The translations under genes and the position numbers were made by a program. A stretch of 64,000 bases of DNA from a virus. Below the pieces are notes generated by a model that saw nothing but the letters and a program-made list of their open reading frames with translations, was not told where the DNA came from and did no database searches. Shown in pieces: positions 6,393 through 8,564 of the stretch (positions are counted from its first letter, which is position 1; each line of letters opens with the position of its first letter). The stretch is from IMG/VR virus record IMGVR_UViG_3300045988_015843; one strand, written 5' to 3'.

Positions 6393-6439
6393 ATAGTTGG
6401 TTACTAAAAACTATCTGCAGTGACACACAACACTGCAAT

Positions 6440-6531
6440 GCGGGAGTAGCTTATGAGGTAGAGCAGTGTGAAGTCTGGAATAATATCAGATGAGATCCTC
6501 ATGGAAGCAGGTTCGAGTCCTGCCCCTGCGC
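6440..6531 (+). tRNA. tRNA-like gene, about 92 nt, with a long variable arm and no canonical anticodon arm
   Basis: Acceptor GCGGGAG, then TA, then D-arm GCTT-ATGAGGTA-GAGC. The T-arm GCAGG-TTCGAGT-CCTGC is canonical, and TGAG-ATC-CTCA forms a variable-arm hairpin. The only central hairpin is TCTGG-AATAATA-TCAGA (6474-6490). It has A rather than U at position 33 and lies 8-9 nt too far from the D-arm. The acceptor 3' strand pairs imperfectly. Confidence 0.45.
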
Positions 6532-6544
6532 AAAAAACTACAAT

Positions 6545-6763
6545 ATGCGGCTAAAAGAATCTAATAGACCAAAACATTTGTTGTACGCTATTCCTGCAGC
6601 ATTTGTTGGTACGATATTATTCAGTACAGGTCTAGCGTTTGGAATGGAGTTTAAAGACAAACAATGGGGAGGTAAGTTCGATTGGCTTGATATAGCTGCT
6701 ACAGAAATAGGTGGTTTAATCGGACAAGCACTTCAAATAGGAGTGATTTCATTATTTGTTTAA
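6545..6763 (+). CDS. small membrane protein (72 aa, two hydrophobic segments)
   Basis: Intact ORF. 'LLYAIPAAFVGTILFSTGLAFGM' and 'IGGLIGQALQIGVISLFV' are hydrophobic helices. Confidence 0.55.
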   Translation: MRLKESNRPKHLLYAIPAAFVGTILFSTGLAFGMEFKDKQWGGKFDWLDIAATEIGGLIGQALQIGVISLFV

Positions 6764-6830
6764 TTAATTAACCTCCTTAAGAAAGAGGTTAACACTGCCC
6801 TATGGTGTAGCGATTAGCACAAGAGGCTCT

Positions 6831-7809
6831 TTTATCCAATGAATAATTGAATATATGGAAAATAAAATATATAAGCTCTCAGACGAACAGTTTGTTGAGC
6901 TGCTCAAGAATAGTTCGACTATATCTGAAGTGTTATTTAAATTAGGTTATAGTGTAAAGGGTAATTCTTGGGGGTTTGCTAAAGTTAAACAAAGAATGTC
7001 TGATTTAAATTTAGACGGAAGTATATTTAAAGGTAAATCTCCAATTACGAAATATGGTACTTTACACAAAGTAAATGCTTCAGATATATTAAAACCTAAT
7101 TGTAAACATGCTCGTTCTGTTTTAAGACGATATGTCATAAAAAATAATCTAATCCCATATCGATGTGCGATTTGCGGATGTGTTGAATGGCAAGGTCGTA
7201 CATTAAGCTTAGAGCTTGATCATATAAACGGAATCAACAACGATAATCGTATAGAAAATCTACGATTTCTATGTCCGAATTGTCATAGTCAGACAACTAC
7301 TTATGGTAGTAGAAATCAACAAAGAAATGATTCTGAATATGAAATTACAGACGATCTTAGAAATTTAGTTGAAGCTGAGTATCAAAAACGTCGTAATATA
7401 AAACAAGTTTCTTCAGCACTTGGTGTTCGTAGACATGTTGTAAACAGGATTGTTAGCGAAAGCGGTTTGAAAAAATCTAATCAAAAATATGTGATTCGAT
7501 ACGATGAGAACTGGAACGAAATTGCACGATATGGTTCTTTGATAGAGACTGCAAAGCAACTTATTCTCAACAACGAAGTTAAAACAAAACGAATTAAAAC
7601 ATGTACTCGTACGATCATGTACAATAAGGATAATTTTTGGTTGAACAGTCATTGGAAAATATTGGATGGTAGCGGGATAATAAATAATCCGCTATTAGAA
7701 TCTTCTCTAATTGACTCGGAAGACAATGTTGACGAGGCGCAAGCGAAAGCAGCGTGACAGACTGAACGAGAAGACTGGTCTTAGGACTGGATGCAACAGT
7801 CGATTTATG
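6831..7809 (+). mobile_element. 979-nt intervening sequence in the tRNA anticodon loop (group-I-intron-like, carrying an HNH ORF)
   Basis: The insert sits between anticodon positions 35 and 36. The boundaries follow the group I rule (U before the 5' splice site, terminal G). The 3' 170 nt is GC-richer and has a TAGCGG/CCGCTA stem (7670-7675/7689-7694), a GCGAAAGC GNRA hairpin (about 7743-7750), 'ACAGACTGAA' (7758-7767, resembling the group I R element ACAGACTAAA) and CAGTC (7797-7801), which can pair with GACTG. The ORF fills 903 of the 979 nt, so a complete ribozyme core is not evident. Confidence 0.5.
6855..7757 (+). CDS. HNH homing endonuclease
   Basis: 300-aa intact ORF containing 'CAICGCVEWQGRTLSLELDHINGINNDNRIENLRFLCPNCHSQ' (HNH with CxxC...CxxC). 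The C-terminal half looks like HTH/NUMOD-type DNA-binding modules. No TAG; the stop is TGA. Confidence 0.85.
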   Translation: MENKIYKLSDEQFVELLKNSSTISEVLFKLGYSVKGNSWGFAKVKQRMSDLNLDGSIFKGKSPITKYGTLHKVNASDILKPNCKHARSVLRRYVIKNNLIPYRCAICGCVEWQGRTLSLELDHINGINNDNRIENLRFLCPNCHSQTTTYGSRNQQRNDSEYEITDDLRNLVEAEYQKRRNIKQVSSALGVRRHVVNRIVSESGLKKSNQKYVIRYDENWNEIARYGSLIETAKQLILNNEVKTKRIKTCTRTIMYNKDNFWLNSHWKILDGSGIINNPLLESSLIDSEDNVDEAQAKAA

Positions 7810-7861
7810 AACCCTCCTGGTCCGGGTTTGACTCCTGGTAGGGCTACTAAAATATAATAAG

Positions 7862-8425
7862 ATGGAAATTAAATTCAAGAAACTTTCTCATAAGGCTGTA
7901 ATGCCTTCAAAAGCACATAAGACAGATGCTGGTTTTGATCTAACTACTACGGGTATAACGACAGAGTTGAATGAGTGTGGTCAGTTGGTGATCGTATATC
8001 ATACAGATCTTGCATTAGAGATTCCTGAAGGATACTTTGCTCTGGTGATGCCAAGATCATCTATTGCAAAGAAGTCATTACGTCTTACGAATAGTTGTGG
8101 TGTGATCGATTCAGGCTATCGTGGTGAAATACTTGGTAAATTTATCGCAACTACAGATGTTGTTCCTGCCGTATACAAGGTTGATGATAAATTTGCTCAG
8201 CTGGTGATCTTGCCTGTTCCTGATGTAGAGTTTGTTGAGTCTGATAATTTTTCAGAATCTGATCGAGCTGATGGTGGTTACGGATCTTCTGATAAGGCAC
8301 AGACTGCTGTAGACTCTGATACTAATACATCTGGCAACGACGAAAATATTTCAGTGCGAAGTGCACGACCGACAGATTGGCAGTCTGCAGTAACTGAGGA
8401 CAATCAGTGCGAGTCTGCAGCATAA
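7862..8425 (+). CDS. dut: dUTP diphosphatase (trimeric dUTPase) with an acidic C-terminal extension
   Basis: 'DAGFDL', 'PRSSIAKK', 'GVIDSGYRGEI' and 'RADGGYGSSD' match dUTPase motifs I-V. Confidence 0.85.
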   Translation: MEIKFKKLSHKAVMPSKAHKTDAGFDLTTTGITTELNECGQLVIVYHTDLALEIPEGYFALVMPRSSIAKKSLRLTNSCGVIDSGYRGEILGKFIATTDVVPAVYKVDDKFAQLVILPVPDVEFVESDNFSESDRADGGYGSSDKAQTAVDSDTNTSGNDENISVRSARPTDWQSAVTEDNQCESAA

Positions 8426-8453: not shown

Positions 8454-8528
8454 GGAAGTTTAGCTCAGTTGGTTTAGAGCGTCTGCCTTACAAGCAGAAG
8501 GTCGATGGTTCGAATCCACCAACTTCCA
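8454..8528 (+). tRNA. tRNA-Val(UAC)
   Basis: GGAAGTT TA GCTC AGTTGGTTTA GAGC G TCTGC CTTACAA GCAGA AGGTC GATGG TTCGAAT CCACC AACTTCC A. This is a canonical cloverleaf with one A-C mismatch in the T-stem. The anticodon TAC is at 8489-8491. Confidence 0.85.
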
Positions 8529-8564
8529 CCTTCATTTTTTTCATACTGACTTTTTGAATTTGCG

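Follow-up and report, generated by a model that had tools for sequence, protein, structure and literature searches.

How does a phage decode the in-frame TAG codons of its late genes when the one tRNA gene that seems suited to the task is cut in two within its anticodon? This question is raised by a 64,000-nucleotide (nt) stretch of DNA from the IMG/VR virus record IMGVR_UViG_3300045988_015843, referred to here in its entirety as the window, which comes from a gut crAss-like phage whose nearest GenBank relatives belong to the Suoliviridae/Oafivirinae (Bohxovirus 'endotrachealis', cr130_1, and cr131_1). On the plus strand, to which all window coordinates below refer, a gene for a tRNA with the anticodon CUA, tRNA(CUA), is separated into two exons by a 979-nt insert that carries an open reading frame (ORF) for an HNH homing endonuclease. 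A preliminary description of the locus considered three readings: a compact, ORF-overlapping group I intron, a different joining mechanism, and a disrupted gene. Comparison with related loci supports the first of these, in that the last ~150 nt of the insert hold a core that overlaps the 3' end of the ORF and shows compensatory changes in every helix. On this comparative evidence, we consider it likely that the insert is a splicing-competent group I-type intron and that its removal would yield a functional tRNA.

The decoding of TAG in the late genes, which the preliminary description had assumed, is real. Between 9.1 and 42.5 kb, readthrough of TAG gives ORFs of up to 1,562 amino acids (aa), with up to 13 TAGs each, and from 42498 to the end of the window (64000) a single frame, containing 52 TAGs but neither TAA nor TGA, stays open for at least 7,167 codons. 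Reading through this giant late ORF relies wholly on TAG suppression. TAG positions fall inside alignments with Bohxovirus proteins that are 67-83% identical. The tRNA(CUA) locus sits upstream of this late gene block. In cr131_1, a 13-kb ORF (gp50) lies at the place that matches the giant frame of the window.

The 5' exon (6796..6830) comprises positions 1-35 of the tRNA and ends in GGCUCU, with C34 and U35 as its last two bases; the 3' exon (7810..7846) begins at A36 (AAC...), which places the insertion point between U35 and A36 of the anticodon. The coordinates of the two tRNA halves had been given correctly in the preliminary description. When 6830 is joined to 7810, as had been suggested there, ARAGORN calls a 73-nt cloverleaf, tRNA(cta), with the anticodon CUA. 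In the unjoined window, Rfam does not call the split gene, and ARAGORN misses it whether its intron option is on or off; tRNA finders miss the suppressor here because the gene is split. The only tRNAs that these tools see in the window are a tRNA-Val (8454-8530) and a doubtful tRNA-like stretch (6439-6531). A claimed covariation of the D and T loops (G19A with C56U) is also present: the window combines GCGATTA with TTTGACT, whereas another locus of the family, L022, combines ACGGTA with TTCGAAT. Junctions moved by 1-2 nt, and the anticodons CAA, CGA, CUU, and UUA, were considered and ruled out, as intron-less alleles read CTCTAAC. In the complete Bohxovirus genome, the intron mode of ARAGORN places an intron at position 38 and reports a false tRNA-Lys(CUU).

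The amino acid carried by tRNA(CUA) is probably glutamine, by analogy with related phages. Gln is expected for such a suppressor from the literature on crAss-like phages (PMC7886860), and RefSeq labels the intron-less tRNA(CUA) genes of cr130_1 and cr131_1 'tRNA-Gln'; the cr131_1 homologue scores 46.8 bits with the Rfam tRNA model. That the split gene is the only candidate TAG-decoding tRNA, as first stated, holds within these 64 kb but does not extend beyond them, the genome being probably ~98 kb long.

The limits of the insert (6831..7809) are set by an exact empty site. A related contig, L003, is 94% identical to the window in both flanks and has, in place of the split gene, a tRNA that corresponds exactly to exon 1 plus exon 2, with neither duplication nor deletion. 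Because this intron-less allele carries precisely the two exons, the boundaries of the insert are exact; the search for intron-less versions that had been recommended thus found one with an identical mature sequence. In cr130_1 and cr131_1, an intron-less tRNA(CUA) occupies the same site, between a lipoprotein gene and a dUTPase gene. Given the exact empty site and the intron-less genes at the same place, the insert is a discrete mobile unit, 6831-7809, in the suppressor gene of this lineage. In cr131_1, a free-standing GIY-YIG homing endonuclease gene (L005, 3003-3782) lies 26 nt downstream of the intron-less tRNA(CUA). Its product was ruled out as kin of the HNH enzyme of the intron, to which it is unrelated; the suppressor tRNA locus attracts different homing endonucleases.

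The HNH ORF (6855..7757; 300 aa) contains no in-frame TAG and leaves 24 nt of the insert upstream and 52 nt downstream, as had been described. Its identity is supported by a match to Pfam PF01844 (21.9 bits, cutoff 21.4) and by the PHROG HNH endonuclease family phrog_10822 (E = 2.6e-44). An intact ORF of a known homing family, together with intron-plus and intron-minus alleles with exact boundaries, are features of mobile introns. The ORF occupies the P1 loop, which extends from the 5' splice site to the proposed guide sequence, and its final ~95 nt coincide with the segment from the guide sequence through P6.

The same element is found at the same site in many other genomes. Exact-pattern scans with two core motifs identified 32 viral loci, 59 metagenome loci, and 3 loci in metagenome-assembled genomes (MAGs), which together with Bohxovirus make 95 loci with 52 distinct cores, 51 of them complete. 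At every locus, an insert of ~972-1001 nt interrupts a tRNA(CUA) gene at CTCT/AAC (AAA or AGC in a few). In all 28 loci with a complete intron the ORF is intact, encodes 298-304 aa, and ends 44-54 nt before the 3' splice site. The exons span many different tRNA(CUA) alleles, and ARAGORN calls the joined exons in 18 of the 28 complete loci; the other 10 pairs have an unusual T arm and D loop. Among these variants, the 3' exons of L008, L028, L030, L032, L034, L037, L039, and L044 share an odd T arm (GUGGG-GGAGGCA/GCAGCA-CCUAC) and a D loop without GG, and L009 and L019 have other odd 3' halves. A second intron subtype, that of L006 and Bohxovirus, has its own intron-less alleles, of the form GGTGGGCTCTAACCCCAC, in five contigs (L116-L120). 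A 15-mer, GACAGACTGAACGAG, was rejected as a family search motif; it was too unspecific, most of its 88 hits being due to chance.

Conservation along the insert is codon-periodic across the ORF and then becomes nearly total from ~7660 to 7803; synonymous sites share in it, and so do the 52 nt that follow the stop codon. This segment folds into a series of paired (P) and joining (J) elements. P2 (UAGCGGG/UCCGCUA; 7670-7676/7688-7694), with 5 of its 7 pairs supported by compensatory changes, closes a loop of 11 nt, AUAAUAAAUAA, which all close family members share unchanged and from which the divergent MT835539 departs at two positions. P3 (UCUUCUC/GAGAAGA; 7701-7707/7768-7774; 4 of 7 pairs compensatory, 99.7% paired) forms a pseudoknot with P7. 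P4 (CUCG/CGAG; 7715-7718/7733-7736; 2 of 4 pairs compensatory) encloses J4/5 (GAAG) and P5 (GAC-AAU-GUU; 7722-7724/7728-7730), all three pairs of which show compensation; P5 is 3 nt longer in L025 and L038, which gives L025 a GAAA loop. P6 (GCGC-AA-GC-GAAA-GC-A-GCGU; 7737-7755) has a GNRA loop, is 100% paired, and includes 1 compensatory pair; it corresponds to the GNRA hairpin noticed earlier. The ORF stop codon TGA (7755-7757) spans the last base of P6 and J6/7 (GA; 7756-7757). P7, C(A)GACUG/CAGUCG (7758 and 7760-7764/7797-7802), is 100% paired around a bulged A7759; its closing pair switches between G-C and A-U (25 of the 52 cores), and its first pair is A-U in MT835539. P8 (CUGGUC-UUAG-GACUGG; 7775-7780/7785-7790; 3 of 6 pairs compensatory) is followed by J8/7 (AUGCAA; 7791-7796), which precedes the 3' strand of P7. 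The insert ends with G7809, the presumed omega G, as read from the window. From the guide sequence to this terminal G, the core measures 149 nt and has no P9.

The evidence that this fold is real comes from covariation. In a first set of 28 distinct cores, its 39 pairs were 99.4% paired and 12 of them showed compensatory changes, a level reached by none of 500 shuffles; slid controls gave 33-49% pairing. A covariance model was then built from these 28 cores without P3, and the 95 loci (52 distinct cores) were aligned to it. The larger set was 99.9% paired (slid controls, 33-50%), and 20 of the 39 pairs, covering all seven helices, were compensatory. P3, although left out of the search model, still covaries in the 52 cores. 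The family model found no further match in the window or in cr131_1. Plain minimum-free-energy (MFE) folding alone recovers P2-P6.

The most divergent comparison is provided by MT835539, whose HNH protein is 55% identical. It fits the model with 107.7 bits, no non-standard pair, and many compensatory differences, and it carries an extra P9-like hairpin. Its ORF ends at P2, with the fold continuing downstream; because the ORF stops there, the constraint acts on the RNA and not on the protein tail.

The helices follow one another in the group I order, P3-P4-P5-P6-P7-P3'-P8-P7', with the P3/P7 pseudoknot. An invariant G-C pair in P7 stands beside the bulged A7759, and we take it, by analogy with the P7 of Tetrahymena, to be the guanosine-binding site. 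The bulged-A P7, a J8/7 of 6-7 nt, P3' directly after P7, and P8 between P3' and P7' match the Tetrahymena-type core. With this assignment, the elements proposed in the preliminary description have to be partly renamed: the 'R-like' ACAGACTGAA does form the 5' strand of P7, but the 'P/Q-like' hairpin TAGCGGG...TCCGCTA precedes P3 and is P2, the true P4 being CUCG/CGAG, as supported by CUCA/UGAG in L016. Two other candidates were discarded, namely a first P6 (UUAGA/UCUAA), dropped in favor of the covarying P3, and a P3 partner at 7113-7119 (CTCGTTC), which is not conserved in L006.

The splice sites agree in part with the group I convention. The 5' exon ends in U at all loci, and the U6830 and G7809 of the window are the bases that the preliminary description had recognized. 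A candidate guide sequence, AUUGGA (7661-7666), would pair through GGA with UCU of the exon (P1, with U.G at the splice site) and through AUU, or GUU, with AAC of the 3' exon (P10). The motif (A/G)UUGGA is present 3 nt before P2 in 51 of the 52 distinct cores and is the wobble complement of the ligated junction UCU/AAC; because the exon junction never varies, covariation is silent on the P1 pairing. No guide sequence was found in the 24 nt before the ORF.

At the 3' splice site, about 40 of the 51 complete distinct cores (~78%) have G as the last intron base. In the other 11 of the 51, which comprise the L006/Bohxovirus type and L016, it is A, with P7 unchanged, and since the intron-less alleles prove the boundary, this A is truly the last base. 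In the L006/Bohxovirus type, J3/4 differs as well, and P6 no longer has its GAAA loop. Under canonical group I chemistry, a terminal A should block exon ligation, so that the A-ending copies are either splicing-defective or follow a relaxed 3' site rule. P2 still shows a compensatory change, from U-A to C-G, in L010 and L013, inside the A-ending clade, which points to continued selection on the fold there.

These A-ending copies are one of several observations that weigh against a splicing-competent group I intron. The proposed P1 has only 3 bp (plus 3 bp of P10), with ~830 nt separating it from the 5' splice site; a 3-nt exon-guide pairing (CAU/GUG) is that of the Azoarcus tRNA-Ile intron. 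To our knowledge, a P9-less core of ~150 nt is smaller than that of any natural group I intron. The MFE z-score of the segment is only -1.5. About a third of the genome is outside the window, which leaves room for a second suppressor tRNA. Finally, the Infernal search with the Rfam group I model Intron_gpI (RF00028), proposed in the preliminary description, gave no match even at E <= 10 in 6700-7950 or in MT835539; under the same conditions, and at the gathering score across the whole window, no other group I family and no self-cleaving ribozyme family in Rfam was matched. This miss carries little weight: at its gathering score the model likewise fails to report a group I intron in the cr131_1 capsid gene, and it is therefore taken to be insensitive in this lineage.

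It could be supposed that the insertion is a dead end, that is, that the HNH element is not removed from the RNA and that TAG is decoded by a tRNA encoded outside the window or by a host factor. The miss with the Rfam group I model and the unseen third of the genome would suit this explanation, and a terminal A subclade is what would be expected of a copy that does not splice. In addition, Bohxovirus also reads TAA, which a tRNA(CUA) should not decode, suggesting that another decoding route exists there. However, an unspliced insert has no reason to keep a ~150-nt fold that is 99.9% paired, with 20 compensatory pairs, in 52 copies. Its boundaries are exact, the exons remain cloverleaf-competent, and ARAGORN finds no other tRNA(CUA) in the window or in Bohxovirus PV686213, the one complete intron-bearing genome. 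The disrupted-gene reading of the preliminary description is disfavored by the existence of intron-plus and intron-minus alleles that are otherwise identical, by the conserved fold, and by the ORF being intact in all complete copies. We therefore regard a dead-end insertion as quite improbable.

Alternatively, the insert might be removed by non-classical chemistry, through a protein-assisted or novel ribozyme reaction, or through cutting, with an RNA ligase then closing the anticodon loop. Such chemistry would account for the tolerance of a terminal A in 11 of the 51 cores with P7 unchanged and with the compensatory P2 change of L010 and L013, and it would sit well with the very small, P9-less core and the 3-bp P1. 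The helix order, the P3/P7 pseudoknot, the bulged-A P7, the 5' U, and the terminal G in ~78% of the cores are nevertheless the pattern of group I. In 12 sequence types, no complementarity was found between the intron ends or with the exon flanks, and hence no bulge-helix-bulge motif; the insertion is at 35/36 rather than 37/38, and no self-cleaving ribozyme family was matched in the Rfam searches mentioned above. Removal by such a route appears very unlikely. As for the idea that the conserved 3' segment reflects constraint on the C-terminus of the endonuclease or on a DNA target site instead of RNA structure, the ~95 nt of the block that lie inside the ORF speak for it, but its chances are close to nil given that conservation extends to synonymous sites and to 52 nt downstream of the stop codon, that changes come in compensating pairs, that in MT835539 the ORF ends at P2 with the rest of the fold downstream, and that the L006 type and L026, whose frame is shifted by a length difference of 1 nt, keep the fold.

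If the insert is a group I-type intron, its removal can be pictured as follows. The locus would be transcribed as one precursor, and its 3'-terminal ~150 nt would fold into a compact ribozyme consisting of the guide and P2-P8, with no P9. The guide (A/G)UUGGA would pair on one side with UCU at the end of the 5' exon, so that a U.G pair marks the cleavage site, and on the other with the beginning of the 3' exon. A free guanosine lodged in P7 would attack after U6830; the terminal G7809 would next take the place of the guanosine, and ligation of the exons would give a tRNA of 72-73 nt with the loop CU-CUA-AC, which could decode the in-frame TAGs of the late genes. The HNH protein would be made from the standard-code ORF in the P1 loop and would presumably cut intron-less alleles in co-infecting relatives, spreading the intron.

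A further proposal goes beyond splicing itself. It combines three elements: self-splicing of a minimal P9-less ribozyme would control the switch to the TAG-sense code, translation of the ORF would compete with production of the tRNA, and the A-ending clade would splice noncanonically. Taken jointly, these make a speculative and rather unlikely proposal, and what regulatory meaning we infer for the arrangement is to be read with this in mind. If it were true, making the endonuclease and making the suppressor tRNA would be rival uses of every transcript, and this rivalry could determine when or how strongly the late genes are expressed; a guide ~830 nt from its 5' splice site would act in a core most of which is also read as the tail of the endonuclease ORF; and the A-ending sister clade would splice by a non-canonical choice of the 3' splice site.

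Group I introns in the anticodon loops of bacterial tRNAs are known in four tRNA genes, namely cyanobacterial and plastid tRNA-Leu(UAA), tRNA-fMet, and the proteobacterial tRNA-Ile and tRNA-Arg (PMC1995217). The insert described here resembles them in being a self-splicing-type intron in the anticodon loop with a short predicted exon-guide pairing. It differs in its phage host, in splitting a stop-codon suppressor that the recoded late genes appear to need, in having its ORF between the 5' splice site and the guide, where it overlaps a ~150-nt P9-less core, and in having no match to the Rfam group I model. The Synechocystis tRNA-fMet intron (655 nt) encodes the endonuclease I-Ssp6803I (PMC1995217); in that known case too a homing endonuclease targets the anticodon region, but it is of the PD-(D/E)XK type, whereas the enzyme here is HNH.

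Phage group I introns with HNH endonucleases include those of I-HmuI, I-TwoI, I-BasI, I-TslI, and I-PfoP3I (PMC1995217; PMC3428280). Like these, the present element combines a mobile group I-type intron with an HNH ORF and shows intron-plus/minus polymorphism among close relatives. In contrast, the known phage introns split mRNAs (DNA polymerase, nrd genes, lysin, and terminase) and not a tRNA; at the tRNA locus, there is no exon reading frame, and the ORF would be expressed from a tRNA precursor. As far as we found in the literature, phage group I introns have so far been described in protein-coding genes and not in tRNA genes. The Delta-group crAss-like phages (now Suoliviridae) are rich in group I introns, which interrupt the genes for the major capsid protein (MCP), PolB, and primase, among others (Yutin 2021, PMC7886860). 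In cr131_1, the gene for the major head protein (L181, 27379-29758) is split by an HNH-bearing intron with a classical GAUAUAGUC element near its 3' end. This capsid intron and the tRNA intron belong to the same lineage and are the same kind of element, both unreported by Rfam at the gathering score; the capsid intron differs in its ribozyme sequence type, with GAUAUAGUC and 3' hairpins.

Recoding of TAG to Gln in late genes, with suppressor tRNAs, is known in crAss-like phages (Yutin 2021, PMC7886860; Borges 2021, bioRxiv 10.1101/2021.08.26.457843), and some recoded genomes of this group have no detectable suppressor tRNA (Yutin 2021, PMC7886860). The intron-less tRNA(CUA) of cr130_1, cr131_1, L003, and L116-L120 is the same gene at the same genomic position and, unlike the one in the window, it is unsplit. 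Our literature search found no published description of an intron inside a phage suppressor tRNA, in agreement with the impression of the preliminary description that the arrangement was undescribed. The new element predicted here is a compact group I-type intron that carries an HNH ORF, shares part of its core with this ORF, and interrupts the amber-suppressor tRNA of crAss-like phages with TAG recoding.

Split suppressor tRNAs can account for some of the recoded crAss-like genomes in which no suppressor is detectable, and annotation pipelines for recoded phages should look for split tRNAs, given that at least 95 loci share the arrangement. More generally, a selfish mobile element resides in the one gene on which the translation of late genes appears to depend, and this dependence raises the question of whether splicing limits or times the code switch. 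The core may also be useful for ribozyme work: it is exceptionally small, part of it doubles as coding sequence, and variants that end in A exist in nature.

Bohxovirus PV686213 (L023 and L024), whose sole tRNA(CUA) gene bears an A-ending intron at 65205-66181 of the record, on the minus strand, looks like a case of dual TAA and TAG recoding. In its late genes, 27 in-frame TAA and 60 TAG codons lie in alignments 67-83% identical with proteins of the window, and its TAG-readthrough ORFs abut in the same frame across single TAAs. ARAGORN finds no tRNA(UUA) or other suppressor in this genome.

Several other observations concern the insert and its family. A small hairpin after the 5' splice site, UCCAAU/AUUGAA (6835..6851), read from aligned family members, is present in most of them; L009 and L038 retain its stem in altered form, and L043 and MT835539 lack it. 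UCCAAU (6835-6840) forms one mismatch with its local partner AUUGAA and is fully complementary to AUUGGA, which is found twice before P2 (7651-7656 and 7661-7666), the second copy being the proposed guide sequence. This complementarity could act as a tether or switch that links the distant 5' splice site and the core.

The 162-kb contig IMGVR_UViG_3300045988_076858 has two different intron-bearing tRNA(CUA) loci, L027 and L030, one with a canonical and the other with an unusual T arm; it contains either two split suppressors or a chimeric assembly. Among GenBank phage records, only one has the core, and there it is annotated as a hypothetical protein, with no tRNA. A scan of bacterial genomes found the core only in the 3 MAG contigs, which are assigned to three different taxa and are probably mis-binned phage sequences, giving no clue to the host. 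In a 196-kb viral contig (L062, 1300-1700), a LAGLIDADG-type ORF (..GLFDADGSFYY..) is followed by GACAGACUGAACGAGG...AGCAACAGUCGA, which shows the same P7-P3'-P8-P7' module and scores 27 bits against the covariance model of the tRNA intron; a different element probably carries a related group I core here.

In the window itself, the tRNA-like gene at 6440-6530 (plus strand) scores 27.6 bits in Rfam, under the cutoff of 29. It has a long variable arm, and ARAGORN folds it with an anticodon loop of 8 nt, CUGGAAUA ('ggaa'). The gene, which occurs in L002 as well, could be an odd tRNA-Ser(GGA) or one that has decayed.

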